Notes: generated by a model from the sequence alone, not told the origin. A DNA stretch of 64,000 nucleotides from Carcharhinus amblyrhynchos (GCA_965287045.1 OZ336885.1:37820001-37884000); one strand, 5' to 3'. Positions 14,012 to 61,899 are shown, counted from the stretch's first letter. A program made the numbers and translations.

Positions 14012-14061
14012 CTGATTGGCCAGGGGCTGGGATCAACACAAGCCTCTGTATCTATATATAT
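14012..14061 (+). promoter_or_regulatory. CYP24A1 core promoter: inverted CCAAT box and TATA-like element
   Basis: ctgATTGGcc at 14012-14021 (NF-Y consensus) and TATATATA at 14053-14060, ~60 nt upstream of the ATG. Implies a TSS near 14085. Confidence 0.65.
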
Positions 14062-14121
14062 TCGGTAAGAAACCAGTATACACAGAGGGGGCTGAGAACT
14101 TGTTGAGATTTTTTTTCCAAA

Positions 14122-14343
14122 ATGCGGGTGCAGAGCAAGAACGGCAGCCGGCTCCTGCAGTTTCTGAGACAAGGGGACAAGTTGCGACACCGCACTCCGC
14201 TTTCGACAGCTGGCAGTGTGGCAGACAAAGCCATGGCTCCGTGTGGCCACAGCTCCATCCCAGGTCCCACCAGCTGGCCCGTGCTAGGCAGCCTGCTGGA
14301 GATCATCCGGAGAGGAGGGCTCCAAAAACAGCACAAAACACTG
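14122..14343 (+). CDS. CYP24A1: CYP24A1 exon 1 (mitochondrial transit peptide ... [29 protein letters not shown])
   Basis: ATG in aaaATG context, basic presequence, PGP motif, donor gtaaat at 14344. Confidence 0.92.
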
Positions 14344-26300: not shown

Positions 26301-29300
26301 GGGACAAGCAGTGGATAGGTTGATTTTTGAGAAGGAACATTCATTTCCCATAGGAAGCCCTTTGAATCCTATCTTGAATGTTTTCAGGGCAGCTTCTAAC
26401 AATCGGTCTCTGGTTCGGTCTCTGATTGCTCAATTCCACTAGGTTGAGACACAAAGTGCACTCCTCAGAAAGACAAACACAGACACATTTCAGGACTCTT
26501 ATTTTAATGAAGTTTTAGCCTGCTGACCGCCTAAGTTGAAGCTCTTTCAAAAATTGCGCTGGGTAGGTCTTTGACATGAATGAGTGACATTCTATTTAAG
26601 ATTTCCTCTTGAAACTACTGTTTTGACCCTGAAAATTGAGATGCATGAGTGTGTCTTTTGCATTCATGTGCTGGCCTCTCCTATGGGATGGGATGTTCAT
26701 GGAGGTTTTTCTTCTGTTAGTCCTTACACATATGTTACATAAAATGGGTCATGGATTCTAGACAAAGAAGCAACTTCTTATTAATGCTGTCAAGAGTAAC
26801 TGTTATCTAAGTGAAGGTCATCAAATGAAAGCTCTGCAAAAGGTCTATTAAAATTTTATGCTATTTTATATTACAGACTGCCAACAGTATGCTTTGGGCT
26901 ATTTTTAATCTCTCACGCAATCCCAAGGCACAAAACAAACTTAGTGAAGAAATATGTCGTGTGCTGTCCAAAGACCGGGCCCCAACTGCAGACGATATTA
27001 AGAAAATGCCCTACCTGAAGGCTTGCCTAAAGGAGTCTATGAGGTTTGCTTGGCCAGATTGCTGTTAATTTCCTTTCCAGCATTTTTGTATTTTTGTTTA
27101 TATTTCAGTCCTTCACGTTGAAATTTCCGATCCCACATTATTTGTTTGATCTATTTACATCAGATTTGGTTGTCGTATGAAGAAAGATTGGGTCAACTAG
27201 GCCTGTGTTCACTGGTGTTTAGAAGAAGGAGAGGGAATCTCATTGAAACACATAAAATTCGGACAGGGCAAGACAGACTGGGGGTGAGGAAGGGGAGGGG
27301 TGGAGGGCATCTAGAACAAGAGGCCATGTCTCAGGATATGGGGTAGATCATTTAGAACTGAGATGAGGAAAAACTTCACCACTCAGGGTGGTGAACCGGT
27401 GGAATGCTCAACCATATAATGTTGTGCAGGCTGAATGTATTGAAGGAAGAAATAGATTTCTAAACACCAAAGGTTTCAAGGGTTAAGGAGAGAGCAGGAG
27501 TATGGTGTTGAGATAAAAGACCAGCCATGATTACATTGAGTGGCAGAGCAGGCTCAATGGGCCAAGTGACCTACTCCTGCTCCTATTTTCTATATTTATA
27601 TATATCTAATACCAGTTAAAAAGTAGGCAGCTGTTCACAACTAGAAGGATATGTACACCATAGCAGCTTTCCTTGATCTAGCAGGCATTCAATACTTTTC
27701 TTACATAGTTTGATCAAGTTTGGAAACTTGTGCAGAATCCTGAAAGCAAACACTCTACAATGCATTCTATCATGCTACAGCAAGTACAATAAATTACACC
27801 ACTGAATTACAGTCGAACTGGTAAACTTTCAGCTTATAGCTTTGGATCATTTTAAGAATGAAACATGAATTGGTAATCTTATCTGGTAAAGTGTAGGATC
27901 TATTCTGTAGAGCATTATTTTACCAAACCAGAACTGAAGTAACTGATTTGATTTATTATTGTCACATCTACTGGTATACAGTGAAAACTATTGTTTCTTG
28001 CACACTATACAGACAAAGCACACCATACATAGAGAATTAAAAGAGAGAGTGCAGAATGTACAACATGTTTTATGACACTATTGTTTGCTCTGCTGTGATC
28101 ATTTAGATTCATTTTTTCTCAGAACTATTATGTATGTAATATCTTTATCATACTTTGACTTAGCACGCCTTTTTATCTTATGCAATCTTACTTGATTCCA
28201 ATTAATCTAATGCATGTTTTTACAAATAACAAGCGTTTTTTATTGAGAATATCACAATCTTGTTAAATATACGACTGTAACTAAATGCCTCACGTAGAAT
28301 GACAACTAATGTCAATTACCTGTTTAGGATTACTCCTTCTGTGCCCTTCACAAGTCGCACCCTGGATGAAGAAACTGTTCTCGGTGACTATTTGCTACCT
28401 AAGGGAGTAAGTATCAAGCAACATCCCAGACACAAACCAAAATATAGCCTGTTTTGCTGTTAACTCACTGACATTTTAACTCGTTCATAATCCCAGTTTT
28501 GAGGAGTTTCCATATTATTGTAATGACAAGAGACAGAATGTTACTACATCTCAAAAACAACCAGACAATGAATTAAGCTGGAAACTCTACAATTGTTATG
28601 TAGGCATAACAGAGCAGGTATTTTAGGCGTACCGTGTTGCACAAACAACAGTAAAATTAATTACCAGTTGACTTGTTTTTGGTGTTGCTGGTTAAGGTAC
28701 ATATATTGGCCAGGACATCAAAGATCTTGTTGCTCTTCTGCAAACAGAAATATAGGACCTTTAACAGTCACCTGAACTGGAATAAGCTAAAGGAATCTAG
28801 TTTTATTATCTCATCCAATGTACAGGCAACTCAGGCTGAATAGCTCTTATTTCAGTGATCACACTAAATTATATGTTCAAATAAACTTGCCACAATGATT
28901 TCTGAGCCAAGAGTGGTGCCACGTAAGCCAAGTTGTCACTTGACCGCAATTTATGTTGAGTACTTCTTTGAGAGATGAAGCATGTGACTGAGCAGTAGCT
29001 TCTGTTAAATAATCAAACTAGCGTCATGGGCAGGATTTAAGACCCATCCTGCCAGCAGGATCTTCTGGTCCCATTGAAAGCTAAGTCCCCCCACCCCATC
29101 CCTGTGCCCTCCTGGCAGATTCCCCGGTAGCAGGATGGGAGAGCAATACAAAACACTGTAGATATTGGCAGGACCAGAAGGTTCTGCTGGTTGCAATGGT
29201 GAGCCACTTCCACTGCTGGAAAACATGTCATGAGGGGAAGGGGGGAACTCACCACATGTCACTATTTATAATATTTTCAAAGCCAAAATCATGTTTATTA

Positions 29301-30005
29301 TCTAAATGTATCTAAAGCAGACAGATCGACATAAACTGAAAGAATTAGATAGTGAGAGGTAAAGAGAGAGGCAATCACATGTAGAGAGAGACCATCAAAT
29401 TTTCTTTCTAAATGTCCATGAACAATATTACTGGAGAAGAGCTAACTATTTATGAAAATGTGACAGTATTTCATTACTTATGTCATGGAAATGTGAACCT
29501 TAAGTCAGAGTTTAAAAAATGTGTTTTCAGAATTATACTTTTACACCAAATATAAGGGGAAATTACTTGTTTTCTTTTCCCCATAGACTATTTTAATGAT
29601 AAACAGTCATGCATTGGGGTGGAATGAAGAATATTTTGATGAGGGAATGCAGTTTAAACCTGAACGCTGGCTGCAGGATAAGCATACGATCAATCCCTTT
29701 GCACACGTGCCATTTGGTGTTGGGAAAAGGATGTGTATAGGTCGGCGACTAGCTGAACTACAGTTACAGTTGGCCCTCTGCTGGGTAAGTCATGTGGGCT
29801 GGGCATCATCATTATTGGTGCCAACAAAGTACAAGTGCAACTCTTAACCGGAGTCACAGCTATTTCTAACTCAGCGTTTTTTCTTTTACTGCAGTTGGTT
29901 CAAAAGTACAAAATAGTGGCTACTGATGTAGATCCAGTGGAAACATTGCATTCAGGGATATTGGTGCCTAATCGTGAAATCCCAGTTGCCTTCCAGATAC
30001 GTTAA
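14122..30005 (+). CDS. CYP24A1: CYP24A1, mitochondrial 1,25-dihydroxyvitamin D3 24-hydroxylase; join(14122..14343,14658..14848,15241..15334,16326..16422,18123..18214,19056..19167,25328..25473,26877..27043,28328..28406,29587..29784,29895..30005), 502 aa
   Basis: Continuous frame across 11 GT-AG exons. P450 motifs GGVETT, ESMR, PERW and [10 protein letters not shown] are present, with CYP24-specific [17 protein letters not shown] and [11 protein letters not shown]. Internal exon sizes 191/94/97/92/112/146/167/79/198 match remembered human CYP24A1. Confidence 0.97.
14658..14848 (+). CDS. CYP24A1: CYP24A1 exon 2
   Basis: ttcacag|[16 protein letters not shown]...[19 protein letters not shown]|gtgagt, 191 nt. 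Confidence 0.97.
15241..15334 (+). CDS. CYP24A1: CYP24A1 exon 3
   Basis: caccag|[31 protein letters not shown]|gtaagg, 94 nt. Confidence 0.96.
15329..15484 (+). repeat. 16-bp G-rich minisatellite (~9 units, consensus gggacattctggggaa) starting at the exon-3 donor
   Basis: Read directly from the sequence; period 16. Confidence 0.9.
16326..16422 (+). CDS. CYP24A1: CYP24A1 exon 4
   Basis: cctcag|[32 protein letters not shown]|gtaggt, 97 nt. Confidence 0.96.
17153..17896 (-). mobile_element. CR1/HER1-type LINE, 3' fragment (RT C-terminus)
   Basis: ORF 17304-17852 (LEYC...[22 protein letters not shown]...SYEEQL...[17 protein letters not shown]) and a cataagacatagg tail. Confidence 0.92.
18123..18214 (+). 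CDS. CYP24A1: CYP24A1 exon 5
   Basis: ttgcag|(T)[30 protein letters not shown]|gtaagt, 92 nt. Confidence 0.96.
18545..18740 (-). mobile_element. tRNA-derived SINE
   Basis: Reverse-complement B-box (gggaattgaaccc) and A-box (ccagctaact), with a typical shark SINE body. Confidence 0.55.
19056..19167 (+). CDS. CYP24A1: CYP24A1 exon 6
   Basis: tctcag|[37 protein letters not shown]|gtacat, 112 nt. Confidence 0.96.
20380..20575 (-). mobile_element. 3' end of a shark LINE family (also at 3560, 5270, 46285 and 54415)
   Basis: gggatgtgggcattgctggctaggcc...cctaattgccc...ccttcttgaactgctgcagtcc is repeated in several copies. Confidence 0.65.
23270..23606 (-). mobile_element. tRNA-derived SINE sharing its tail with the LINE above
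   Basis: Reverse complement of the element at 53320-53670; B-box gggatttgaacc. Confidence 0.7.
24558..24955 (-). mobile_element. Penelope-like element end (related pieces at 21938, 22830, 34750 and 54020)
   Basis: aaaagcaaattactgcagatactgg...gaaaatgctggaaaatctcagcaggtctgacagcatct...tcttcatcaaagctg. Family assignment and orientation are from memory. Confidence 0.55.
25328..25473 (+). CDS. CYP24A1: CYP24A1 exon 7 (I-helix)
   Basis: ttttag|(A)[48 protein letters not shown]|gtaata, 146 nt. Confidence 0.96.
25850..26180 (-). mobile_element. HE1-type V-SINE, near full length
   Basis: CR1-like tail, V-domain and tRNA head, all in reverse complement. Confidence 0.85.
26877..27043 (+). CDS. CYP24A1: CYP24A1 exon 8 (adrenodoxin-binding K-helix)
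   Basis: ttacag|[16 protein letters not shown]...[12 protein letters not shown](R)|gtttgc, 167 nt. Confidence 0.96.
27167..27600 (+). mobile_element. CR1-type LINE, 3' fragment
   Basis: [30 protein letters not shown] followed by a CR1 3'UTR (gggccaagtgacctactcctgctcctatt). Confidence 0.85.
28328..28406 (+). CDS. CYP24A1: CYP24A1 exon 9
   Basis: gtttag|[26 protein letters not shown]|gtaagt, 79 nt. Confidence 0.96.
28560..28930 (-). mobile_element. Decayed Deu-domain SINE
   Basis: atattggccaggacatc...tgctcttc...cacctgaac...tctcatcc matches the reverse-complement Deu consensus. Confidence 0.55.
29587..29784 (+). CDS. CYP24A1: CYP24A1 exon 10 (PERW and heme-binding Cys)
   Basis: ccatag|[11 protein letters not shown]...FKPERW...[25 protein letters not shown]|gtaagt, 198 nt. 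Confidence 0.98.
29895..30005 (+). CDS. CYP24A1: CYP24A1 exon 11 (last coding exon; stop TAA at 30003-30005)
   Basis: ctgcag|[36 protein letters not shown], then g|gtatgt donor at 30007. Confidence 0.96.
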
Positions 30006-30106
30006 GGTATGTTTACACTGTTCTAAAATGTCATATACATAATAATGTATGTTACCCTTTTCCTTCAGTTTTCTCCTTTGCCTCTCCTTACATACTGTGT
30101 ACCAAT

Positions 30107-40139: not shown

Positions 40140-42510
40140 TCATAGATTCATAGAATCATCACAGCCCAGACAGAGGCTATTCAACCCATCATATTTGTGC
40201 TGGCTCTCTGCAAGAGCAATCCAACTCGTGCCTCTTCCCATTCTTCCTACCGTGCATCAGTTCACGATTTTCTGCATTTATATTAATTTGCCAAGTTGTT
40301 CACCTATTCCACCAGCCTGTCTATGTCTCTTTCGAGTCTGTCTCAATCTTTCTCACAACATCCAAGTTTAAATCATTAATATATTTTAAAAAAGGATTGG
40401 TCCTTGTACCAGCCTCTCAGGAAGCCCACTGAATACTTTCCTCTAGTCTCAAAAATAACAACTTGCCATAATTCTGTTTCCTATCACTCAGCTAATTTTT
40501 TATCCTTGCTGCCACTATCCATTTGCTCCATGGGCTTTGAGCTTGCTGATATGCCTGTTATCTGGCCCTTCTTCAAACAGCTTTTAGAAGGCCAAATACA
40601 CTGCATCATACACTTTACCCTCATGAACCATTTTGATTACTTCATCAAAGACCTTAATCAACTTGAGATGATTTGCTTTTAATAAATCCATGCTAGCTCA
40701 AATTCATTTACACTCATCAAAGTGACTAGTAATTTTGTCCCGGGTTATCACTGTGAAAAGTTTTCCCATCACCAGCGTTAAACTGTTTGGTTTGTGATAG
40801 CTGGGCTTACCCGACACCATTTTTTGAACAAGGGTGTGATCCTTGCAAATTCCCACTGCTTCCCACCACACCTGTCTAGAAGGAGAACTGCATAATTATG
40901 ACCAGAAACACAGCAATATTTTTCTTATTCTTTCATGGGATATAGAAGACCAGCATTTGTTACCCATCCCTAATTGCCCTTGAAATGAACAGCTTATCGG
41001 GCCATTTCAGAGTGCAATTAAGATTCCACCACTTTGCTGTGTGATTTGAACAGATGTCCCCAGAGCATCAGAAAAGAACAGTATCCTTACTACTACTGTC
41101 CCTATGTTTCATGGGCTTCAAGTTAGCTGCCCCTTCACCAAACAGCAACCCTTTTGGATAACTTATCAAAGATCTTAGTCAACTTGAGATGATTTGCTTT
41201 GAATAAGAAAATTACTTATGTTATTAAATTTGTATATTAACAAGTTACTTGTCCAGTGACATTACCACCATGCCACCATCTCGCTAACTTCCCACCCTCA
41301 CTTTCCTCAGCATTCCATCCGGTCCTAGCCACTTAATAATTTCAAGTACTGCCAGCCTTTTGAAACATCCTCTTTGTCAATTTTTAGTCTATCCAGCATT
41401 TCAATTACCTCCTCTTTCACTATCGTTTTGGCAGCATCTTCTTTCTTGGAAAAACTCATTTAGTACCTCAGTCATATCCTGAGATTCCAGGTGAAGATCC
41501 CCTTTTTGATCTCTAATTGACCCTATCCCCATCCTGTAACTATTTATAGAGAAGATTTTTTGAGTCCTTTCCGCGTTAGGTGTCAGTCTGTTCTCTCTTT
41601 GCTTCTTGCTCTTCCTTCCTCACTTCCCATTTGAACTCTCTATATTCATACTGGTTCCACTTGTGTTACAAACTTAACACATCTGTTCCCTCCTTTGTTC
41701 TCCAATAGAATCTAACAAAATGATAGCTGGTAGCCTATGAGATTGGAGGTACATCGAGCTCCACAAGAATATATTAGATGCCCATGCCAGGCAGATGGCA
41801 TAGTTGCTTGCTAAGTTTTAAATTAAAAAAAACGCACAACTGACCCCTCTGTTTAAGCAGCTGATAGGATTATTACCATGGTAGGTTTGGACAAGGTGAT
41901 GGGGGTGGAGGTGGCACTTGCATATAGATGGACACTGAAAGTTTCAGGCAGCATAGGCAAATGAACATTGGGTGTACCCAAAGTGGTGCAAGTTCCTGCT
42001 TAGAAATACTGATGATATGTCAGTCTTGCTGGTGGGATCAGCACTGCATGATATAGTTGGACACAATTTCTCCATAGCCACTGGAATCATGTCCAAAGAA
42101 TATTGGGGCCAATAGATCATTAAATGCTTGAGGAGATCATTGCTGTAAGCACGTGACACTACAAACATGCAAAATGTTACTACTAAATTCAGGAACACTG
42201 ACTATCTTAATTCTGGGAAGGCTTTACATCAGCACCATTCTCCTGCCTTTTTCACACAGCCCTTTAACTTTTTCCTTGAGATAATGATCCAGTTCTCTTC
42301 TGAAAGCATCGATTGAACCTATCTCCACTACACTCTCAGCCAACGCATTCCAGACCCCAACCACTCGCTGCATAAAAAATTATTTCCTCGTGGCGTCATT
42401 GATCCTTTTGCCAATCACTTTAAATCAGGATCCTTTGGTTCTTGATACTTCTATCAATGGAAATAGTTTCACCACGCCTATTCTGCCCAGACCGCTCATT
42501 ATTTGTACAA
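40140..42510 (-). mobile_element. Heavily decayed CR1-type LINE fragments with a SINE insertion
   Basis: catagaatc tail at ~40148, RT-like remnants, and a further CR1 3' piece at 42230-42510. Confidence 0.5.
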
Positions 42511-43589
42511 AGTGCCAGAGGGTGGCTGGCAATTATAGAATAAAACCCAACCAGACTTGATACTCAGTTGAGAGGGGGAAAACAATTTATCTCCCAAATC
42601 ATCACACAGACAGTGGTTTAGTATTCTGAATCAGTACATCAAACTCTGTAGCATGAAACTCTGCGTGTTCAAATTCCTACTGAGAAATAACCCATTCCCA
42701 GGTTGGAGAAATGGAGGTCTTGGAGCAGAGATGACTTGATACTCACCAACAAAGAGAGGCCTAACGACAGTGAAATTGTTAGGTTACTCTTACTCATATG
42801 CTACTGACTGGATGAAGAGGAGTCATATCAAAAGCAGGGAACTGAAATCCACTTTTCTCCTGAAATGATGGGTAAGGAAAGCAGACGTTAACAAAGGTGA
42901 TGAAAGTATTATACTTCAGAACCGTGACAAAATAACATGTTATCATGTTTTAAAAACTGCTGTTATATGACTGCAGTTGTATGTTTTCCTAGAGACTACT
43001 ACAGGAGAACTTCAGTCTTTGCAAAAAAAAATGTTATTGGGAAACCCAAATACATGTCATGGGGTTCAAACAATGGTAAAAGTTCAATGTTCCCATGGTT
43101 ATAATGTAAGACAGCAATGGACATTTAAGTTCCTTGAATGACCTTGTCCTTGTTGAACTATAAAATTAACAGAATAAACTGAAACTGGTTTGGTTTATCT
43201 AAGAGCTCAAACTCCATGACGTGCTCATCCCTCCTACATTACAAGTATCCTGTAAATAAAGATATGAAACGATATCATAGTACTGCAGCTTATCAGTGAT
43301 TTTTCTTAGTAAGCACCCCTTAAACTTAGGTAGGAAAGAATTTATGACTGTGTTGAATTCATAAAGAGGGACGTGAATTTGCAATGTCCTATTGGTAGCC
43401 CTTGTGTATGAAATCTAAATTATCATGACATGTTCTTCTAACAATTATGGTGAAAGTACACACCTTTCAAACTCATAAACATGTCAGACAATGTTACAGA
43501 GTACTCAGGATGACTCGTCATGTTAAGTCATATTAGTTTGAATCAGTAGCAGAAATGTTACATCTGAGTGATATATTAGGACCTACTCC

Positions 43590-44050
43590 AGGACTTTCTT
43601 CTTCTGCACCTGCTTTAGTTTAAGTACATGATCTAAGCTATTATTACAAAATCAAAGGAGTGCTGCACTGTTGGAGATAGTGGCTGGAATTTTACCATCT
43701 TACCCACCCCAGACTTGGGGCAGATGAGGCTCACAGAATGGCATTCTCCATTGCGGGATCAGGCGAGGCTGTAAAATTCCAACAGGTGTATTTTGGAGGC
43801 AGTGTTAAACTGAAAAGTTATCTGCCTGTTTAGCTGGGTGTAGAATTCCCACATCACAATTTGTCTGCCTGTTTAGCTGGGTGTAGAATTTCCACATCAC
43901 AATTTGTCTGCCTGTTTAGCTGGGTGTAGAATTCCCACATCACAATTTGTCTGCCTGTTTAGCTGGGTGTAGAATTCCCACATCACAATTTGTCTGCCTG
44001 TTTAGCTGGGTGTAGAATTCCCACATCACAATTTGAACAAGAGTTACAGG
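43590..44050 (+). mobile_element. Deu-domain SINE carrying a MITE insertion (43682-43782) and an internal tandem amplification
   Basis: ggagtgctgcactgttggag...gtgttaaactga...tctgcctg...gaacaagag follows the Deu consensus. Confidence 0.55.
43821..44035. repeat. 43-bp tandem repeat x5 (tctgcctgtttagctgggtgtagaattcccacatcacaatttg)
   Basis: Units start at 43821, 43864, 43907, 43950 and 43993; one substitution in copy 2; no spacers. Confidence 0.97.
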
Positions 44051-46284: not shown

Positions 46285-47115
46285 TATTTTCTTTTATTCA
46301 TTCAATGCATGTGAGTGGTAGTGGGTTGCTTTCTTGAAATGTTGCTATTCACTGGTGTATGTATACCCACAATACTGTTAGGAAGGATGTTCCATGGTTT
46401 CAACCCAGCAACAGGAAAGAAATGACAATATAGGTCTATTAATTAGGACGATGGGTGACTTGGTAGGGGAATTTCCAGGAGCTGGTGTTTCCAGGTTTCT
46501 GCTGCGCTGTTCCTTCTAGGTGATAGAGGTTGGGGACATGGAATGTACTGCCAAAGGATGCCAGGTAAATTGTCACAGTGCATTTTTTAGTTCCTGCACG
46601 CTGCTGCCACGCGGCACTTGTGATGGAAAGGGTAGATATTTAGGGTGGTGAATGGGGTGTTGATATGCTTTGCCCTGGATGGTGTCGAGCTTCTGACAGG
46701 TTCTTTGATACTGCACTCATCCAGGCAAGTGAAGAGTATTCCACCATACTGCTGACTTGTACCTTATAGATGACAGGTTTTGGAGGGTTTCCAGAATTTA
46801 CATTCAGGATATTGACGGTGGGAGATCCAGTGATCATAATGTCATTAAACATCAAGTGGAGATGATTTAATTCTCTCTTATAGGAGATGGTCATTTCCTG
46901 GAATTTTTCAGCTATAGCCTGAATGTTGTTCAGGATTGCTGCATATGAGTACAGACTCCTTCAACGTGAGGTGAGTTTGAATGGTGCTGAACAATGTGCA
47001 ACTAGAGCAAACATCCCTACTTCTGATCTTATGTTGGAGGAAAGATCACTGATAAAGCAGCTGAAGGTGGTTGGGACAAGGAACTTCTGTAGTGATATTC
47101 TGGGATTTAAACAAT
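46285..47115 (-). mobile_element. Host LINE, 3' part (continues at 51705-52190)
   Basis: Same 3' end as the copies at 20380 and 54415; RT remnant IYKVQVSSMVEYSSLAWM. Confidence 0.7.
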
Positions 47116-47116
47116 A

Positions 47117-50100
47117 ATTAGAAACTAGTAGCAGAAGTAGGCACTTCAGCTCCTTGAGCCACCATTCAACACAATCATGACTAATCTCACCTCAGCTTCA
47201 ACTCCACTTTCCTGCCTATTTTCCAGACACCCTCAACACATTACTGATTAATAATCTGTCTGTCTCCTCCTTAAATTTATGCAATATCCTGGCATCACTG
47301 CACTCTGAAACAAGGAACTCCACAGATTCACCCATCCTCTGAGAGAAGTAGTTTCTCCTCATCTCTGCATTAAATCTGCCACTCCTTATTCTCAAGCTAT
47401 GACCTCTTTTTCTAGATTGCCCCACCAGAGGAAGCATCCATTCTTTCTACTTTGTCAATATATTTTATCATCTTGTATACCTCAATTTGATCTCCTTTCA
47501 TTCTTCTGAACTCAAGAGAGTGTAGGCTTCAACTGGTCAATCTCTCTTCATAAGACAAACCCTTCATCCCTTGAATAAATCTAGTGAAACTTCAATGAAC
47601 TGCTTCTAAGACCACTCTATCTTCCTCAATTAAGGGGATCAAAACTGTACACAGTATTCCAGCTACAGTCCCACTAATGCCTTCTACAGTTGCAGCAACA
47701 CATTCATATTTTTGTATTTTATTTGTTTAGCTATAAATGCTAAAATTCCATTTGCTCTCTTTATTATCTGCAATATCTGCATACCAGTTTTCTGAAACTC
47801 ATGCACGAGGACACCCAGGTCCCTCTGCACCGAAGCACCCAAAAACTCTCTCCATTTAGATAATAAGCTGTCTTTCCATTTTTCCATCCAAAATGGATAA
47901 CCTTGCACTTATCCATTTTTAATTTCCATCTGCCACAACGTCCTACTCACTCCACCTATCTGTATCCATTTGTAAATTTCTTATTTCCTCATTGTAACTG
48001 ACTATCACACCTACTTTTGTGTAATCTGCAGATTTGGCTATAGTATCTTCTATCACTGTATCAAGTCATTAATATAGATTGTAAATAGCTGGGGCCTGAG
48101 GATTGAACTCTGTGGCACCCTACCAGTTACATCTTGCCAACAAAAAAAATACCTATTTATCCTGACTCTTTGTCTTCTGTCATGTGGCCAGTTTTCTATC
48201 CAAGATAATAAATTACCCTTACCCCCTTGTGATCTTACCTTGTGTAGTAAACTTCTATGCGGCACCTTATCAAACGCTTTCCTGAAGTCCAGATGTACTA
48301 CATCTACAGAATCTTTATTATGCACTTGGCTTGTTGCATCTTCAAATAACTCTAGCAAATCAGTCAAACATGAATTACCCTTCATAAAACTATGCTGACT
48401 CAGATGGATTGCGTTTTGGCTTTCCAAGTATCCTGTTATTACTTCCAATTTCCCAACATCAGATGTTAAACTAACTGGTCTACTGTTTCCTACTTTCTGC
48501 CTCCCTCCCTTTTTGAATAAGGGTATTCATTTTTCCAACCCACTGGAACATCTCCCGTATTCAGGGAATTTTGGAACATTATAACCATTGCATCCATCAT
48601 TTCTGCTGCCACTTCCTTTATTATCCTTTGATGGAGACCATCAGGCCCTGGGGGCTTATCTGCCTTCAATCCCAAAAGTTTACTGAGTACTATTTCCCTA
48701 TTGATAATGATTGTTGTAAATGCCTCCTTTTCTATTATCTCTTTATTAGTATTACCTGTTACTACTGGGATAGTACCAATGCCCCCCCCACCATGAAAAC
48801 TGAGACAAAATATTGATTTAGTATCACAACCATTCCTGTGTTCCCCACTATTAATTTCCTAAGGGAACAACATTTACATTAGTTACTCTCTTGAGGCTAG
48901 CCTTTTATATACTTATAGAAGTTTTGCTATCCTTTTTTATAGTTTGTGCTAGATTTCTTTCATAATTTACCTTTGCTCTTTTTATTACTTTTTTAGTGAT
49001 CTTTGTTGATATTTAAAAGTTTCCCAGTTTTCCAGCCTGCCACTGGTCTATTCAATATGGTATACCTTGGTTTTTGTCTTTATGTTGTCTTTAATTTCTT
49101 TGCTTGGTTGTGGATGTTTCTCCCCCCCTTACAATCTTTCTTCCACTCTGGAATGTATTTCAGTTGAGAGGAATTGAATACCTCCTTAAACAAATGCCAT
49201 TGCTCATCAACTGTCCTACTGTTTAGCCTCCCCGTCCAGTCCATTAGGGCCAAGTTTGTCCTCATGCTACTAATTACCTTTGTTTAATTCCAGAATGCAA
49301 GTGTGGAACTCCAGTTTCTCACCTTCAAACTGAATTTTGAATTCTATTAAACTATGATCACGCTTCCCAAAAGAATTCTTAACTATGAGGATATTCATTA
49401 ATCTCTACTCATTACACAAATCCAGAATAGCCTGCACCCTGGATGGTTCCACAACATATTGTTCCAAGAAGCAATCCCCAGTACATTCAATGAACTCTCC
49501 CTCAAGGTTACCGTTGCCAATTTGATTAATCTAGGCTATGTGCATATTAAAATCAACCATGATTATTGCCTTACCTTTCTTTCAAGCTCCCTGTATTTCT
49601 TGGTTTATACTGTGCCCCACTGTGGAACTATTGTTTAGAGACCTAAAGTCTACTTCCACCAGGAATGTATTGAATTAGCTATTTCTTATTTCTGCCCAGA
49701 CTGATTACACATCTTGATCTCCAGTGCTTATATCATTTCTCACTATAGGACTGATCCCTTCCTTCATTAGCAAAGCTACACCACCTCCTTTTCCTTTCTT
49801 CCTATCTGTTCAAAATACTGAGTACCATTGGATATTCAGTTCTCCGACTTGGTCTCCTTGTAATCCTTGCCCCCAATTCATACCCCTTTGTCTGTTTATG
49901 CTATTAACTGATTAATTTTGTTCCAAGTGCTTTGCGCATTGCTTGTTCTATTATCAAATTTCCTTACTCTTGTATAACGCCTTGTTGCAAAATGACATTC
50001 CCTTCCATTTGTTTTCTGGTAAGAATCTGCCTCATCACTAACCTGCCCTCCTAAATTCTCCTTTAATTTTGATTTTCTAATTTTCCCCAATCCACTATTG

Positions 50101-51700
50101 AGTTTAAAACCCTATCTACAGCCCTAGTTATGTGAATAACCAGGACTCTGGCCCCAGCATGATTCAGGTGAAGGCCATCCCATCCAAACAGCTCCCGCCT
50201 TCCCAGTACTGGTGCCAATGTTGCATGAATTTGAACCCATTTCTCCCACACCAACCTTTGAGCCACGCATTTACCTCTTTAATCTGATTGACTCTGTGCC
50301 AGTTAACTTGTGGCTGAGGTAGTAAACCAGATTATTACCTTTCTGGTTCTGTGCTTTTAATTTACCCCTAGCTGATCATATTGCCTCAGCAGAACTCCTA
50401 TCCCTGTTCTATCTATGTCATTGGTACTTACGTGGACTATGACAACTGGATCTTTACCCCCCCATTCTAAGTTGCTCTGCAGCCCAGTTGAGATTTCTCA
50501 AACCCGGGTATCAGGTAGGCAACCCAACCTTTGGGATACTTGATTCTGGTCACAGAGAACAGTACCTATGTCCCTACCTATACTATTCCCAATTACAAAT
50601 ACATATCTCTTCTATTTCACCACTGGAATGGCTCCCTTTATCGCGGTACTGTGGTCAGTTTATTCATCCTCCCTACAGTTTCTGCTGTCATCCACACAGG
50701 GAGCAAGAATTCCAAACCTGTTGGACAAGGTCAAGGGCCGAGGCTCCTGCAACACTGCCTCTTGGGTCCCTCTACCTGCCTCACTCATAGTCACACCCTC
50801 CTGTCCCTGACCATTGGCTGAAATAAAGGTAGTTAAACTAAGGGGTGTGACTACCTCCTGAAACACAGCATCTAGGTACCTCTTCCATTCCCTGATGTGT
50901 CGCAGTATCTGGAGCTCAGACTCCAGCTCATCAACTCTGAGCCATAGTTCCTCGAGCAACCAACACTTACTACAGATGTAGTCACGAGGTACCACAATGG
51001 GGTCCACCAGCTCCCACATCATGCAGGTACAACACATTGGTTGGCCCTCCATCCCTCTTTTATTTAATTAGTTTTTCTTGTTTTTATATTTAACTGGTTT
51101 TTACCTTCTAATCTGTATAATATTTTTCCTTTTACCGATGATGTGGAAGCAACTTAGGTCATTCAAATTAACAGTTACTTGCCAGTCAATGAAATTACTG
51201 TTTTCCTGTCAAGTCACTCCTGATTGTTTTTCAAACTCAGCCCTCTGCCCAGTACAGTGTGTCCGTCACAGTGCTGGCTGTCTCTGGTCCCGAGAAGGTG
51301 AGTGAAGGCCTCAAGCCTCGTGCTGTATTTATCCTCTGTTCCCAAGTCTCGTGCTGTATTTATCCTCTGTTCCCAAGTCTCGTGCTGTATTTATCCTCTT
51401 CTTCCATACAGTGTGTCCCTCATAGTGCTGGCTGTCTCCACTCCCAGAAGGTGAGTGAAGACCCCGAGCCTTGTGCTGTATTTATCCTCTGCCCCAGTAG
51501 AGTTGTCCCTCGCAGGTCCAGCTATCTCCACTCCCAGAAGGTAAATAAAGGCCCCAAGACTCATGCTGCATTTATCCCCAGCCCCAGTGGAGGTGTCTCT
51601 CACAGGACCATCTGTCTTCAACACGGAAGGTAAGTGAAGGCCCCAAGCCTCACACTGTATTTATCTCAGTAGAGGTGTCCCTATCTCCACTCCTGAATGG
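47117..51700 (-). mobile_element. Near full-length degenerate CR1 LINE (ORF1 Zn-finger/coiled-coil/SGNH esterase; ORF2 APE-RT; repetitive 5' end)
   Basis: MCCTCMMWE...YICSKCWLLEELWLRVDELESEL (50660-51052), WDGLHLNHAG (50063-50266), PGPDGLH, HSFMKGNSCLTDL...LDFRKAFDKVPH...VPQSSILRPQLFTIYINDL (48053-48448). Confidence 0.92.
51250..51700. repeat. Tandem ~90-bp monomers with a nested 31-bp triplication at the CR1 5' end
   Basis: Recurring cagaaggtgagtgaaggcccc...tgctgtatttatcctc; ctcgtgctgtatttatcctc at 51317, 51348 and 51379. Confidence 0.85.
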
Positions 51701-52868
51701 TGAGAGGCTAAATGCTTGGCTTCCAACAATCACAGCAATCTTCCTTTGTGCTAAATATGACTTCAACCAGTGAAGATTTTTCCCCCTTGTTCCCAATGAT
51801 TTTCAATTTTGCTGGGACTCGTTGATGCCACATTTAGTCAATTGCTGCCTTGATGTTAAGAGCAGTTACCCTGACTTCACCTTTGGAACTCAGTTATTAT
51901 GTTCATGTTTGAACCAAGGCTTTAATGAGATCTGGAGCCCAGTGACCCTAGCACAGCCTGAAGTGAACATCAGTGGACAGGTTGCTGCTGAGTAAGTACC
52001 TCCTGATTTCACTGTTGATGACAGGTTCCATCACTTTGCTGATGGTTGAGCAGCTGGGATGTTAAGTGGCCAGATTGGATTTGCCCTGCTTTGTATGGAC
52101 TGGACACATGGGGCAATTTTCCACATTGCTGGATAGATATCAGTGCCGTAGCTGCATTGAAGCAACTTGATTAAGGGCACAGCTAAAGCCAAGATGTTGT
52201 CTGGGCACATAGTCTTGAATCAGGGGTGGATGACAAAGATAGGAGATTTGAAGGTAAGAAGAATGTTTGCAACCCTTCATCTGACCAACAGACTGCTGAT
52301 GTGGAATGTGGATGTTGGATTTTTTGATAATACTATGTCTCCCTTAGCCAGTTTACTTTCCCTTTACCACATCCTTTACCAAGCACTCTCTTTACCCCTA
52401 ACTCTTATAGCCTTTTTCTCTTCCCCTTTCTTTGCTCTCTCTCTGTCTTTCCTCCACACACACCATGCAGCCCGCCCCCCCGCGCCCCCCCCCCCCCGTC
52501 TTTAATCTAGGATTCTGTGACAAATGCCCTTTTCGCTTCAAGGCATCAGCGAGAAGAGAAAGTTGCTCTTTGATTTAACCCCCAAAATCTAAAATAAAGT
52601 TGATATGTTGGTAAACTTTAAAACCATGAACACAGCTAGGAAGAAATAAGCACAATAAAGAATTTGTGGAGAAGAATGCTGTCCTGTGCAGTTACTGCTT
52701 TCTCTATGGTGACCTCCAAAAGAGAATTTGACAAAGTTCTGATTATACAAACTGCAGAAAGACGAGTATTGAAGTGCAGGATAAAGAGTGAGGCTGTTAG
52801 GTTTATTCTAGGGAGGAGCAAACTAAAAGTGATGGATGATGCAAAAATGCATTTCCAAATAGTCAGGA

Positions 52869-52883
52869 TGAACTCAATGAACT
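52869..52883 (-). promoter_or_regulatory. DR3 vitamin D response element AGTTCA ttg AGTTCA (candidate distal CYP24A1 enhancer, copy 1)
   Basis: + strand tgaact caa tgaact, a perfect RGKTCA-N3-RGKTCA. Confidence 0.7.
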
Positions 52884-53319
52884 CTATGCTTCCTTTAACA
52901 CCGCAAGTTTTAAAATATGTTACCTTTAAAACAAAATGAAACAGAGTGTGTGTAATAAGAGAAACAGTTTGAAAGACTGTTATTTGATGTAAAATCAGTC
53001 TCTTGGTTACTGGTTTATCTGATACTGCTATACATACAGAAACTCGACAGGACAATTAAGTGAACATGAAAAAAACTCATTAACTTTTTTATTGAGAAAC
53101 CAAGGTGAAGAGGCCAAGGCCCAGAGTGCAGGACAGCATGAAATTTGGAGACAGTTAAAGAAAAGACAACAGAAATCAGACAGTGCTGATTTGGCAATGC
53201 CAACCTTGGCTTTTTAAAAGCTGAAGGTGATCGACATAAGGAAAGATTTAGGGAGCAATGGCAATTTTGTTTTGAAAGCCTTGGGAAAGAATGATTAAGA
53301 GTAGGAGATTGTGTGATGG

Positions 53320-53670
53320 AAGGCAATAGCCTCGTGGTATTATCACTAGACTATTAATCCAGAATCTCAGCTAATGTTCTTGGGATCCAGATTCAAATCC
53401 CGCCACAGTAGATGGTGGAATTTGAATTCAATTAAAAAAAAATCTGGAATTTCAGAATCTACAGATGACCGTGAAGCCCTTGCCGATTGTTGGAAAAACC
53501 TATCTGGTTCTTGAGGGAAGGAAATCTGCCATCTTACCTTGTCTGGCCTACACGTGATTCCAGTCCCACAGCAATGTGATTGATTTTCAATTGCCCCCAG
53601 GCAACTAGCGATGGGCAATAAATGTTGGCTAGCCGGCGATGCCCATGTCCCATGAATGAATAAAGAAAAA
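53320..53670 (+). mobile_element. tRNA-derived SINE with a LINE-derived tail
   Basis: A/B-box-like head (gtggtattatcactagact...gattcaaatccc) and tail gatgggcaataaatgttggctagcc...catgaatgaat. Confidence 0.75.
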
Positions 53671-54414
53671 TTCATCTCCATTTGAACACAGCAAACTCAT
53701 AGGAATGAAGAAGAGCAATCAGGATTTTAGCAGAAATGAGAGAAAAAACTCTTAAATATATGGACCAAACTAATGGTGATACATCAGAAAATTCCTTAAA
53801 TCAGTGGAATGAAATGTACGGGATAGGGAGACCGACTGTCAGCTAATGGCAACAACTTGCATTTATATAGCATCGTTCATTTAGAAGAGTGTCTCAAGTC
53901 TTTCACAGAGGTGTAATCAGAGTTAAGAAAAACTGTAACAGGATTATTCTTGTTTTCTGGTCAAAAGAGAAAATCACATTTTGTAATAGTAGCTTTAACA
54001 ATGGAGGAAATCAACCATAAACCCAGGAAACTCTGGAAATACTCAGCAGATCTGGCAAGATCGGTGGAGAGAGAAACAGAATTAATATTCCATCAAAACT
54101 GGAAAGCTTTTACATGGTTGAAGCCTGGGTAAAAAAAAGAACACGTTGCCATGAAAGGGTAGAAGATGGGAGACATTAAGTGACAGAACAGTTGGCGGGA
54201 CAGAGCAAGCAGAAACAAAATATGGGTGCAGAGGAGATATGAATGTCAGATAATGAATGGCTCCTGTCTGAGAACAAAGAAAGATGAATAAGATAGCGGC
54301 TGACTCATGCAAAGTAAATGAAACAAATGGAAAAGAGAAATTACAGTCTGAAGTTGTTGACCTCCACCTCAAGACCCAAAAATGTCATGCTGACAACTTG
54401 AGCACTTTACAAAT

Positions 54415-54940
54415 ATTCTTTTATGGGATATGGGTGCCACTAGCTAAGTCGGCATTTATTGTCCATCCCTTGTTGTCTTTGACAAGGTGGTGGTGAGCTA
54501 CCTTCTTGAAACGCTGCAGTCTCTGAGATGTAGGTACACCCACAGTGCAGTTAGGGAGAGGGTTCCAAGTTTTGACCCAGTGACACTGAGGGAGCAGTGA
54601 TATGATTTCAGGTCAAGATGGTGTATTGGGTAGAGGGGAACAGTGGTGAATGCATCTGCATTCCCATTTCCTTCTAGCCAGTTGGATAGTAACGTTCACA
54701 TGTTTGGAAGGTGCTGTGGAAGGAGCCTCGGTGAGCTGCTGCACTGCATCCGGTAAATGACACACACTGCTGCTACTTGCGCTGGTGGGGGAGAAATCAA
54801 AAGTTTAAAATGGTGAATGGCGTACCAGTCATGGAGCTGCTTTGTCCTGGATGGTGTCCAACATCTAGAGTGTTGTTGGAGCCTGCACTCATCCAGGTAA
54901 GTGGAGAATATTCCATCACACTCCTGTCTCATACCTGTAC
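54415..54940 (-). mobile_element. LINE 3' fragment (same family as 46285)
   Basis: Colinear similarity with 46285-46770. Confidence 0.7.
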
Positions 54941-56327
54941 GGAGAGAGGGGGTGAGATGCAGACTTCAGACAATAGTGAATGTAGATGCCTGGATTTATT
55001 GACAGGATGTCACTCCATTTTGAACACCCTTTGCGTCTGATTGGCAGGTTATGGACAGAGGGCAAATGTGCTGGAACAGTTCAGAATACTTCAATACAGG
55101 CCAGCCCATGTACTCTGAGCAGCAATAGCCTTGACTAGTTTTGTGAGTGAACACCCTGCTCCACTGAATTCCACATAATTACAGGAAAATTCATCTTTGG
55201 TTAGACAATGAGCTGATATCAGGATATGTGTAAAGTGTCCATTCCTTCCAGTACTATCCACAAAGGCCTTAGAACCCCAAGTTGCAAATTAAATGTGTCT
55301 CCTGGTCGAGTCAGTGTTGGGATGCTATGCAGTAGGCCCTTAGGAAGATTGTGGCAGCTAAGGAAACAGGGCTGTAAGTCATTCCATACTATCTTAAGGC
55401 GATGCCACCTTGTTTCCACGGTCAGGAGACAGCAAAATCTTTTCTGCTGTTATTCTCCCATTGAAAGCAGGTCAAAGTAGAATGATTCAGCCATTCAACT
55501 GGAGATTGAGTACATTACAGAAGGTTAATGAATGTATCAGCTGTGTGCTGATTGAATGAATGAATCAGTGGTGCTGATTGAGTTACATTGTAAATGGGGC
55601 ATAATTAATGTGTCATTAGAATTAAGGAGAAAGTGAGGGCATCTGGACTTTAAACAGCCTGTAAAATCTAAGAAGATTGCGCTAGTTGCCTGGGTTATAA
55701 TGGAGATAATGTGAAGGAAAGATAAGTTAAGTGTAATAAACGGTATAAAACAGAACCAGGAAGTCACCGGTCTTAATTTCTGGTACATACTGAGTTGGGC
55801 TATCAGAGCTCTGGACAGCACTGGAATTATTCAGTGTGCCAATGTGATTGGAAATACAAGATCCATTATGGTTCTCACATCTGATCACTATACATGGTTA
55901 ATGCACTTGTACAAATATTAGAGAGGCTAGATCTGGTCCTGGCTACAATGGCTGCAATCAAATTGACAAACATCATGAAATCTCAAATGTTAGCTACAGG
56001 GACCAGTGCGAGTAGAAGCATCCGCCAGGAACTAGACAAAAACATTTAGGAGAGGAGGGAAGGAAACTGGCAAAGGCAAAAGCATTCTAAAAGAATTGTT
56101 TTGTAGCAGCAGATATGTGTAATAATATTTTCGTATCAACAAACACACCATTACACATACAAGCTTCATCCATTGTCCCATTTAAGGACAAGGAGGGGGT
56201 AATGATTGAGAACCAAGGAGAAGTATTTTGTGATCAGCGGTGAAATGATGACATTCGTCACAGATCTTGAAGAAAGCTGGTCATAAAGAATAACAATTAT
56301 GCAGCAGAAACTTTCCTCTCTTGATAA

Positions 56328-56510
56328 TAGAATCATAGAATCCCTACATTACAGAAGGAGATCCTTTGGCCCATCAAGTCTGCCCCGACTCTCCAACAAA
56401 GCATCTTAGCCTTGATTACCCCACTGCACATTTACCCCACTAATCTCTCTAACCTACATATCTTGAGGCACTAAGGGACAATTTAGCTTGGCCAATCTAG
56501 CTAACCTGCA
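56328..56510 (-). mobile_element. HE1 SINE, 3' half
   Basis: tagaatcatagaatccctac...ggacaatttagcttggccaat. Confidence 0.7.
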
Positions 56511-56854
56511 TACTGTTATAAATCTGAACCCAAATAAATGACATCTGGCATCTAGTTGCAAAAATGTCAGAAGGCAGGGTCTGCAGCCATTCACACTGAT
56601 GTATTCCCACAGTCAGCACATCGGGAAATTAGAAGCCCTGAATGCTTTCGCTTAACTGTAATGTTTTACAGATAATGCAATAAATGATTGAGATATATAA
56701 ATATACTTTAGGTGAAAGATAAAATAGAATAAGTACATTTTAGAAACATGATTTTAAAATTATGTGGCATTTGGATAATGGAGAAGTTTGACATTCAACA
56801 CATATAAATATATTTATATAAATGAATTTACATAAATGACAGGTGTAAATGAAG

Positions 56855-57125
56855 GATGGTATGGCGGCACAATGGTTAGCACTACTGCCTCACAGCACCA
56901 GGGACCCAGGTTCGATTCCAGCCATGGGTATTGGAGAGTCTTTGTGGAATTTGCACCTTCTCCCCATATCCACATGGGGTTCCTCCAGATGCTCTGATTT
57001 CCTCTCACAGTTGTGCGATTTAGTGAATTGGCCATGCTAAATTGCCCCTTAGTGTTCAAAGATGTGTGTGTTAGGTGAATTAGCCGTGATAAATGTGCGG
57101 GGTCACAGGGATGGGGCAGAGGAAA
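56855..57125 (+). mobile_element. HE1-type V-SINE
   Basis: ggcacaatggttagcactactgcctcacagcaccagggacccaggttcgattcc head plus V-domain. Confidence 0.8.
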
Positions 57126-57892
57126 AAGAGCAGTACCACATGTGCAACGGTTAATTTTGTAGACAGTATTGGACTTGCAGTATTGGACTTGCAGTATTGG
57201 GATGCGCCCCCCCCCACCCCCCAAACCACCCCCCCCCACCCCCCACCCCACCCCCACAGTGATCTAACAGCCTATTAATTATCATTGTGATTGTTGGGCA
57301 ATTGGTTCAGTAGCCAGAAGGGATCAGTAGCTGTGAAACTGTAGCTCAGCTAGACTTTAATGTATTAAGTATACGCTGATAGGTAGTTAAGGCAAAATCA
57401 TTTAAAAGTAATTAATTTGTAGCATCTAACGTGACCAGTGATATTTCAACATCACCTATTGTGTATCCAGAAAAAAACAAGTGAAGGCATATTCGTTAAT
57501 CATAATACAAAAAGATTTTAAGGATAAATTAGAGAAAACTTTTGAATACCCATGATACTTTTTTTTACTAATATTAGAAAACAGAGCAAAATAAATCCTA
57601 AAATGCCATACAAAACTTCACAATACTATAATGTATTTTGAGTGCACGTTTGAAACTAATGGGACAGTTTGAAATGATCAGACAGAACTGAGGTGAAGGA
57701 ATGTTAAGTGTGGGTATGTGAATCAGAATGCCTTTCCTGATTGCCACATTCCAAAAAGGCTAAGTTTGGATAATGAAATCTGTAGAGAAACAAAGCTCAA
57801 GACGGAGAAAGCGACTGTCAGCTTTATTCTGGGGAGCGGCGAACTGAAAAGAGATGATGTGTGAGGCAAAAATGGATTTCCAAATAACGAGG

Positions 57893-57916
57893 TGAACTCA
57901 ATGAACTCTACGAACT
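57893..57916 (-). promoter_or_regulatory. Overlapping double DR3 VDRE AGTTCG tag AGTTCA ttg AGTTCA (candidate distal CYP24A1 enhancer, copy 2)
   Basis: + strand tgaact caa tgaact cta cgaact. Confidence 0.72.
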
Positions 57917-58823
57917 CATACACTTCAAAAGTTGTTTCTCTATATTCTGTAAGGATACAGAGAGAACCTGCATATCCTAAGGGCAAGGGATTTTAATTTT
58001 AAAATTATTACTCTTCATTCTTGGTTTATTTGATAGTAAATTGTTTAGCAAATTTACCAAACACAATTAGGGGAGAGTAGAAAGAGCATTGACAATTATA
58101 TGTTCTATTTAGAGTTTAGAAGGAAAATAGGTAGGCCAAAATAATTAATAACCATAAGTAAAAAGCTCAGAAAAAGTGTTTAATGGAGGGATGAAGAATG
58201 AGCAAGCAAATCTTGACGTGTTTGTTGAAGGCACAAAAAGGATCAATTTGGAACATAACATCCTGAGTTTCAGTGATATCTGAAAACATTTGACCCAAAA
58301 TTGAAGCTGGCCATTTTTAAGGCATTTGCAAACTGCCTAAGACTTGCATATCCGAATGAGAGGCCTTATGGTGCAATGGGTAGCCTCTCTATTTCTGAGC
58401 CAGGCACTCCAGCATTGAGTTCCACTTGATGGCTAAGGGAGGTGTGTTCATAATGCAGCTAAAACAGGTCAAGTGTCCATCTGCAAATCCTTCCAGTTGC
58501 AGGCGGTAAGAGCCGGGGTGGCTCCTGGTCAGCCATGCCTGATGTGGAGTGCTGCCCTCAAGCTATAATCCTCTGGAGGCAGACTAGTGACCTGTTCCAG
58601 GAACAACTAGCTGTGGAAACAAACAAAAGTCTGTCTTAGTGCGCTGCTAGGCAATTTATGTAAATGAATGGCCTCATAATTGTCTGAGAACCTTTACAGG
58701 AAATCAAGTTGTCCTTTTGAATGTGGCCTAGTCAATGGCTGCATTGTAAAGATAAGTGACGTTCTTTTATTTCTTTAGAGCTAATAGGAAAAAGTGTACA
58801 CATAACTACTCTATGGTTTTTAC

Positions 58824-60020: not shown

Positions 60021-61899
60021 TCATTGTGCAGACTTTTCCCTTTTGTAAATGTATATTGTATCTATTCTTCTCCGAGTTTCAATTTATAGTCAATTTGCTT
60101 CAACATTTCATGATCATTTAAGAGTTCAAAACATAGCACCCCAATGAAATCCTGGGGGGGAGTTTTCCTGTCCCGCCTGCCACGGGGATCATAGTGGGCA
60201 AGGAGCAAACCATGCAAATGCCCCTGTTGACGTTGGGCGGGATTTTCCAGTTTTGAGGCAAGAGTGGCTGGAAAATCCTGTCTCCTATCTTGAACTCCAG
60301 TTGCTTAAATTCTCACCACAGTGAGTTGGTTTTATTTCCACATCCCCGACATCAGGAAATACACATCACTGATGTCGGCCAATACACCTCTCAGACTATA
60401 TTCTCAGCTGGAGAAACGCCCATCGAGGTTTGTGATATTCTTGATGCTGTAGCTCTAATGTCTGCTGTTTATGGTGGCACAATTAGTCATTGCGACTCAC
60501 TTTATAATCGTATATCCAATTGGAATGGTGTTTGCTTCATCAGATTATTGTATGAAAAATGTACAGTTAAACTTTAAAGCCCATAGCTTTCCATGGCTTT
60601 CTCCCGTAAGATGTTGGCCACGATTCTCACATTCTGGTGCATTCATTTTTTAGCGCAGTGGGCTGGGAGATTTGTGCTGGGGGTGGGGGGGGAGCTGGGA
60701 TGCAGTTTGCTCCACACCAGAAATCGGTGGGGAGGCGGGGCTCCCTTAATAGCCGGGGCTATTAACAAGCCCGGGTCTGAATTCTCCAGGCCCGCTAACC
60801 TCTCCCACCCTGCCAAGGTGTTTCACTCCAGCGGGGAGTACACTAGCTCCCCACCTTTGGGGAATTAGTGACCCAACACCGCTGGAGTGAAGCAGAACAG
60901 TCGGAGCCACCTAGGGGTATGGGCGGCAGGAGGTGGTGCCTGCTAGGCATGGGCAGTCTATGCCCTCTGGCGCTATCCAAGGGGCAAAGTTCCCAGTCTA
61001 TGCCCCCCTGGTACTACCCAAGGGGCAAAGTCTCCATGTCCAGTGGGCACCTTTGCTCTGCCCACACTCCATCTGAAACGTAGTGCTCTCAGTGACTTAG
61101 GATCTCTAGAAAGGATTGGCCTTTGTAAGCTAGACCATGTTGTGGACTGTGATGCTCTCAAAGCGATGCACACATAAATTTCCAGAGTCCTCAGCAGGGA
61201 CCATGAAGGGAAGATGTTGTCATTGGTTGTTGTGTCAATAATGACCAGTCCTAGGGTTTCAACCTAATGCAAAGGTCTTCGAGGACAGATACTTTTAAGG
61301 CTTCCAACAATTGCAGGGTCCTGAGTGGCTGCACCTCAGCAAACCACTATCATGGTGAAGCACTGTCTGTGAGGACAATGCAAACATGCCTCACAAATTT
61401 ACTGTATCACCTAGATGTTAATGATTACTGATTCCTGATTTACAAATGGCGATGGGCAGTAGCAAGATGATGCCTCAGCATTCTGTGTTGATAAGCGCTG
61501 GCAATAGGACTTATGAAGCTCTCCAGAGGCCATCTATGTGTTAAGCATGAAAGAGTGATATGCATGTTTGCTCTGCCATGTTAAGCTGGTATCATACTGA
61601 CAGGAGCACATCCCTGTTAATTAGGAACACACATACTTAATGAAAGAGTGAAATGGGTTAAGGGACGAGATTGTATTATGTCGCGTGGCTGAAGAACGTG
61701 CATTAAAAGAATGCAAATCAGATTCCACAGTGGCCACATGTTGCCAAGGCTACTCATTTAGACATGTTGTCAACCCTTCCAAGGAGGATCCCATCATTAA
61801 GGCATTCGGTGAACACTGATATTTCCATAATCATTATGAGGGCATTGAACTTTTTGTGAGATTTTCTAGCTGAGAGTGAAAGTTTTGGGGCATTCCATG

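Follow-up and report, generated by a model that had tools for sequence, protein, structure and literature searches.

The stretch of DNA analysed here, 64,000 nt from the shark Carcharhinus amblyrhynchos (GCA_965287045.1 OZ336885.1:37820001-37884000; hereafter the window, to which all copy searches were confined), carries a CYP24A1 gene and, tens of kb downstream of it, two related segments (A and B) that each contain the same candidate vitamin D response element (VDRE), a direct repeat with 3-nt spacing (DR3). A first-pass annotation had proposed that these segments are duplicated enhancers of CYP24A1 bound by the vitamin D receptor (VDR) together with RXR, and its identification of the locus was borne out. 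By its protein matches the gene is shark CYP24A1 on the + strand: the vitamin D 24-hydroxylase 3k9v was the top PDB match of one exon (E 5.5e-27; next P450, 5e-11), named shark CYP24A1 proteins were the best 4 of 308 protein matches (identity 91-97%), and 11 coding exons between 14122 and a stop codon at 30003-30005 were placed by tblastn with five named references. This coding span (14122-30005) is the presumed target gene, and its exon 1 is 95% identical to that of Mustelus and 74% identical to that of Scyliorhinus. The proximal promoter (13680-14085, + strand) has CCAAT-like boxes and a TATA-like box at 14053, from which the start site was placed near 14083. A canonical GT donor lies one base past the stop codon (30003-30012), which implies a non-coding last exon; a candidate acceptor lies near 30067, and poly(A) signals lie 3′ of the stop at 30690 and 31590. 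Tandem repeats occur in introns 1 (14415-14542, 62-bp unit) and 3 (15332-15487, 16/32/64-bp unit), both within a CpG-rich stretch at 14.5-16.5 kb. CYP24A1 was the sole gene detected within the window; among the 156 open reading frames (ORFs) of at least 62 amino acids beyond 30.1 kb, a single one had a Pfam match, to reverse transcriptase.

The same 18-mer occurs at 52869-52886 in copy A and at 57893-57910 in copy B, and on the minus strand it reads AGTTCA-ttg-AGTTCA, as the first-pass annotation had seen. These are the sole two perfect RGKTCA-N3-RGKTCA sites in the window. They lie 38,786 nt (A) and 43,810 nt (B) from the inferred start, in agreement with the ~39 and ~44 kb given earlier, 22.9 and 27.9 kb beyond the stop codon, and 5,024 nt from each other. 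When compared with the VDR,DR3 consensus of HOMER, which is derived from chromatin immunoprecipitation (ARAGGTCANWGAGTTCANNN; PMC12810902, Table 1), both copies (AG-AGTTCA-ttg-AGTTCA; 52869-52885 and 57893-57909, minus strand) matched 16 of the 17 positions, a fit scored on the consensus string alone, with no weight matrix, and expected 0.007 times per window under a mononucleotide model. The identical 18-nt run spans the 17 consensus positions and one more, and breaks off where N begins in the consensus. With the consensus DR3 VDRE (PMC12810902; RGKTCA-N3-RGKTCA in PMC1785376) the shark sites share the 5′ AR flank and the NWG spacer, but their 5′ half-site is AGTTCA rather than AGGTCA, and copy B has a third half-site. 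The latter creates a second, overlapping DR3 with one mismatch (AGTTCG-tag-AGTTCA; 57902-57916, minus strand), so that copy B has three half-sites with a 9-bp period; the third half-site is degenerate in copy A. A search for the exact motif in open-access text retrieved the HOMER table alone.

Nine other DR3s with one mismatch were found in the window, and appear to be background. The next best fit to the 17-nt VDR consensus after the pair is an intronic site at 28476-28460 (minus strand) with two mismatches (expected 0.15 per window). Two one-mismatch DR3s lie ~105 bp apart at 43054-43068 (+) and 43159-43145 (-), ~+29 kb from the start site; an extra AGGTCA half-site adjoins the latter, and this group may be a weaker third module or a chance occurrence.

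Self-BLAST yielded a single match between the two regions, 52794-52886 against 57815-57910, with 81.4% identity over 97 columns (79/97; E 5e-17). We refer to this match as the core; apart from the motif it contains exact blocks of 11, 9 and 8 nt. When the 300 nt to the left of the motif were aligned, they scored 109, whereas the best of 500 shuffles scored 46, hence the segments are paralogous independently of the motif, as had been claimed. The best local alignment extends over ~650 bp in the same orientation, 52604-53257 (segment A, + strand) against 57634-58255 (segment B, + strand), which is the full detectable extent of the duplication. The segments delimited in the first-pass annotation are therefore homologous but were drawn too short, and their reported three-quarters identity holds for the core but not for the 5′ part of the range, where identity is 53-63% in 40-column windows. 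Counted by part, identical columns were 112/205 in the left flank, 61/79 in the core without the motif, 18/18 in the motif and 208/396 in the right flank, so that the flanks are 53-55% identical. Unanchored, the flank alignments are modest to weak (40 of 500 shuffles reached the score of the far-left flank, and 6 of 500 that of the right flank); anchored at the core, each was equalled by 4 of 1000 shuffles and by 1 of 600 GC-matched stretches of the window. Still farther left no alignment was obtained (424 of 500 shuffles were as good), and weak tile matches, such as a C-rich one of 52457-52616 to 57215-57392 (E 0.006), were not taken as an extension. A complete 5-kb tandem unit was not detected with 500-nt tiles of 50-64 kb. 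The spacer between the copies (53258-57633; 4,376 nt) contains 1,621 nt that match repeats dispersed elsewhere in the window, and no Pfam remnant was found in its six frames. The alignments thus show that at least ~650 bp were duplicated in the same orientation, and that the event is old.

To judge the peak of identity at the core, neutral simulations with a uniform rate were matched to the overall alignment score, which needed ~0.3 substitutions per site per branch (2500 run, 1139 in the score window) and gave an estimated flank divergence of ~0.6 substitutions per site between the copies. An identity of 81.4% in 97 columns was attained by none of the 1139 score-matched simulations, whose maximum was 75.3%. 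At the flank rate of 0.30 both copies retained a perfect DR3 in 35 of 20000 runs, and at a rate of 0.25 in 87 of 20000. Outside the motif, 61 of 74 aligned core positions are identical, and the core without the 18-mer was still an outlier (of 3000 runs 1267 were kept, and 4 of these equalled it), which argues that the conserved unit is a module and not the motif alone. Similarly, the peak-minus-mean identity was 0.24 for the pair and 0.05-0.16 for eight repeat pairs hand-picked from the self-match tables of the window. These comparisons support a constraint concentrated on the motif and the ~95-bp core, in line with the earlier proposal that selection kept the VDRE in both duplicates.

The same profile could in principle arise if a neutral old duplication had its ~95 bp re-homogenised by a short gene-conversion tract, with the DR3 produced by chance through slippage of a 9-bp unit. 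The sharp edges of the core and the three 9-bp units of copy B would fit such a history, as would the joint survival of the DR3 in ~10% of runs at the divergence of the core. However, the tract would have had to fall on the strongest match to the VDR consensus in the window, beside the classic VDR target, and 0.007 such matches per 64 kb amount to ~1e-5 per 100 bp. Moreover, conversion between copies that are otherwise ~55% identical is unlikely. We consider this explanation very improbable.

The first-pass annotation had recognised no repeat in the segments, and this was upheld within the window. No third copy was found in the 64 kb by nhmmer with the core and 650-bp profiles (next matches, E 5-7), and among 500-nt tiles of 50-64 kb those of the core matched only one another, whereas most neighbouring repeat families matched several places. 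The segments contain no RNA polymerase III box pattern, no terminal inverted repeats were found at their ends, and none of the 12 read-through frames of 52300-58501 had a Pfam match, in an analysis that detected a control long interspersed element (LINE) in one of three frames. At the divergence of the pair, the hallmarks of a transposon could have been erased. The segments might then be two copies of a rare dispersed repeat, or the long terminal repeats (LTRs) of a decayed element of ~5.6 kb, with the DR3 already in the consensus and need not serve CYP24A1. Old superfamilies of short interspersed elements (SINEs) are known to have conserved cores, which would suit this origin; so would the length of ~650 bp, the common orientation and the 5-kb spacing, which fit an LTR pair, and, in each copy, a minus-strand AATAAA situated ~60-80 nt away from the DR3. 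The window is, furthermore, rich in repeats, and 2772 of the 6707 consensus DR3s of the human genome lie within transposons (PMC1785376, Table 1). Against this origin stand the presence of two copies only in the window, the lack of RNA polymerase III boxes, terminal inverted repeats and Pfam remnants in the searches above, and the failure of neutral decay to yield a peaked identity. Known transposon-borne elements, such as the retinoic acid response elements with 2-nt spacing in Alu and the Alu DR3 of cathelicidin (PMC1785376), likewise place identical response elements in repeated DNA; unlike them, the shark pair has two copies in the window, bears no SINE, LINE or LTR hallmark, and keeps its motif far better than its flanks. 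A transposon relic is in our view unlikely, and a transposon origin followed by selection would, functionally, still equal the enhancer reading.

A coding function was rejected, since four ORFs across the segments had no Pfam match at E 0.1 and the six-frame read-through was negative. A structured non-coding RNA was also rejected: no Rfam family reached the gathering threshold in the window, one U6 match was at chance level (E 0.34) and outside the core, and no unusual fold was found (z-scores -1.10, -0.01, 0.19 and 1.91). The core contains a conserved 8-nt block with AATAAA on the minus strand (52802-52809; 57823-57830 in copy B), which may be a factor site or a poly(A) signal. In both copies a pyrimidine-rich run ending in AG, resembling a splice acceptor, lies ~15 nt before the AATAAA on that strand, and the cores could accordingly be read as the conserved 3′ end of an antisense non-coding RNA. 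Such a terminal exon would measure merely tens of bases and would leave the DR3 unexplained, and the Rfam, U6 and folding results also speak against it, so that we regard this possibility as extremely remote. Another conserved block, with the 11-nt exact run, adjoins the DR3 at 52850-52861; in both copies its minus strand fits short, low-information C/EBP-like and NFAT-like patterns. The C/EBP-like fit is a weak lead. Sites for C/EBP-beta and RUNX2 are described next to bona fide VDREs (PMC7839824).

In mouse, the Cyp24a1 promoter carries two elements, VDRE1 and VDRE2, at -156 to -171 and -267 to -282 (PMC11370538). This mammalian couplet resembles the shark pair in that two DR3 elements serve the same gene, but it is promoter-proximal and imperfect, and the shark promoter has no DR3 above background. 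The promoter region at 12.5-14.2 kb contained no DR3 with two or fewer mismatches, and no site between 12.0 and 14.7 kb came within two mismatches of the half-sites of mouse VDRE1 or VDRE2. The proximal 400 bp contain two three-mismatch DR3s, against 2.8 expected. Since mouse VDRE1 itself has three mismatches, a weak proximal site may exist in the shark promoter. A weak tandem of two three-mismatch DR3s lies at 13089-13112. The absence of a promoter DR3 above background leaves room for the distal pair, which may be the main switch in sharks.

Skate VDR requires RXR to bind canonical and CYP3A4 DR3 probes, and 1,25D3 activates it with a half-maximal effective concentration of 7.9 nM (PMC4391915). 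In zebrafish the induction of cyp24a1 is reported to depend on VDRa (PMC3446910). The first-pass annotation had also allowed for feedback by bile acids. This is disfavoured: non-mammalian VDRs were not activated by lithocholic acid unless coregulators were added, and with this ligand skate VDR recruited no SRC coactivator (PMC5152921); bile-acid control is therefore unlikely.

The pair could also be constrained regulatory DNA for another gene beyond the window, or be read mainly by another factor, whether a different RXR partner or proteins that bind the blocks outside the DR3. The conservation of 61 of 74 aligned positions past the motif would agree with this, a physical link between the element and CYP24A1 is presumed, and the window ends 6 kb past copy B. 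Yet CYP24A1 is the sole gene found, the one Pfam match beyond 30.1 kb is to reverse transcriptase, and the 3-nt spacing and NWG spacer are of the VDR type. PXR also reads DR3 elements. It was not found at the syntenic site in three shark genomes, and CAR is described as tetrapod-specific (PMC6539745), which removes the main rival reader of a DR3 in the sharks examined there. Control of another gene, or by another factor, is on these grounds improbable.

The first-pass annotation had taken the pair as the shark counterpart of the mammalian downstream enhancers. Meyer and colleagues, in 2010, are said to have placed the human CYP24A1 downstream cluster at ~+50 to +69 kb. In mouse, two downstream regions are described (PMC11370538 and PMC10334211): DS1 (+21 to +32 kb), which mediates control by PTH and FGF23, and DS2 (+35 to +46 kb), which binds VDR. 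In the same terms the shark pair would stand at +38.8/+43.8 kb from the inferred start, with two perfect DR3s and one overlapping one-mismatch DR3 as putative sites. Like mouse DS2 and the human cluster, it is intergenic, lies tens of kb downstream of CYP24A1, and has more than one VDR-type site; unlike DS2, its sites are paralogues from one duplication with identical motifs, and it is known here from sequence alone. With DS1, which has pCREB sites, the pair shares a downstream position, but it is defined by a DR3, and no full cAMP response element or AP-1 pattern was found in either segment (half-sites not scanned). The equal distance to DS2 is not evidence of descent, because repeats fill part of the interval. 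The earlier claim stands in so far as likeness to DS2 is defensible as a positional and functional analogy only. Judged on sequence, both copies fit the definition of a DR3 VDRE and have the positional features of DS2.

We consider it likely that a VDR/RXR enhancer was duplicated locally in the distant past, that both copies are under constraint, and that they feed back on CYP24A1 in the manner of mouse DS2. The ancestral segment, at least ~650 bp long and situated downstream of CYP24A1, would have held a high-affinity DR3 VDRE inside a ~95-bp module; its two copies lie in the same orientation 5 kb apart. Their flanks have since drifted, and repeats now lie between them, while the two cores are still 81% identical and have kept the DR3. 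VDR bound to 1,25-dihydroxyvitamin D3 (1,25(OH)2D3) would bind each DR3 with RXR, and the neighbouring conserved blocks may bind cooperating factors. The modules, ~39 and ~44 kb from the CYP24A1 promoter, would contact it by looping and induce the hormone-destroying CYP24A1 enzyme, closing a negative feedback.

Several observations weigh against this enhancer reading. The number of perfect DR3s expected per window is 0.12 if base composition is uniform, 0.20 when derived from the observed half-site counts, and 0.06-0.19 in Markov simulations (based on 2 and 6 hits). The first-pass figure of ~0.1 per 64 kb was thus right, but as an argument it counted one duplication event twice; the two DR3s being one event duplicated, their rarity by itself yields only P ~0.1-0.2 for a single perfect DR3 per window, and the statistic was dropped. 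A DR3 is, moreover, a 9-bp tandem unit that slippage can produce, and the human count given above places many consensus DR3s within transposons. A run of 18 nt or more occurred in 14 of 1139 simulations, and the repeat pairs of the window show identical runs of 12-19 nt, one of the eight exceeding 18; from this it can be deduced that the 18-nt run alone is unremarkable and that uniform-rate simulations understate natural heterogeneity. As a stand-alone statistic the run was discarded, being weak by both measures. At a rate of 0.10, close to the core's own divergence, the DR3 was kept in both copies in 2012 of 20000 runs. CYP24A1 as the target is assumed, the next gene lying beyond the window. 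Finally, loss of mouse DS2 is reported to lower induction only modestly (PMC10334211), an effect that is modest because the promoter VDREs dominate.

Other features of the window are mostly repeats. A long decayed LINE at ~46960-51100 (minus strand), which is CR1-like by resemblance, has an RVT_1 match at 48056-48526 and an ORF1-like frame at 51067-50663. By its 5′ end lies a tandem array (51242-51665) of ~90-bp units in 3.3 copies, with a 31-bp sub-array and a splice-donor-like word in each unit. A young minisatellite at 43821-44035 repeats a 43-bp unit five times almost perfectly (98% matches). Another local pair, also short, is formed by 40626-40685 and 41147-41206 (88% over 61 nt); it lies beside a one-mismatch DR3 at 40629 and resembles, by eye, LINE reverse-transcriptase fragments. 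ARAGORN called a tRNA-Ile at 23520-23612 (minus strand), which sits within a SINE-like copy related to 53318-53684 and is therefore probably a SINE head. The tile search also detected two self-complementary stretches, 60818-60895 and 60915-61069.

The pair is a candidate element of a familiar sort, real and probably functional, newly seen in a cartilaginous fish. Its kind is not surprising: VDR is known to induce CYP24A1 in vertebrates ranging from zebrafish to mammals, and mouse has known VDR clusters downstream of the gene. A bolder proposal seems doubtful to us. It would trace the pair and mammalian DS2 to a common origin in an ancestral jawed vertebrate, and make the pair the chief vitamin D switch of a shark CYP24A1 that lacks the promoter couplet. 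If it were true, long-range feedback would be the older wiring, more than 400 million years old, and the promoter VDREs would have been added later, on the line to bony vertebrates or tetrapods. Searches of open-access text yielded no account of response elements at shark CYP24A1. The role of VDR in cartilaginous fishes is poorly known, and the skate VDR assays described in PMC4391915 used canonical or human probes and not native shark elements. The pair provides candidate sites that are native, strong and internally replicated, at the best-known target of VDR, and comparison of A with B footprints the co-conserved blocks beside the DR3. It would thus make tractable the question of whether vitamin D feedback catabolism is wired in sharks, and whether through distal or proximal sites.

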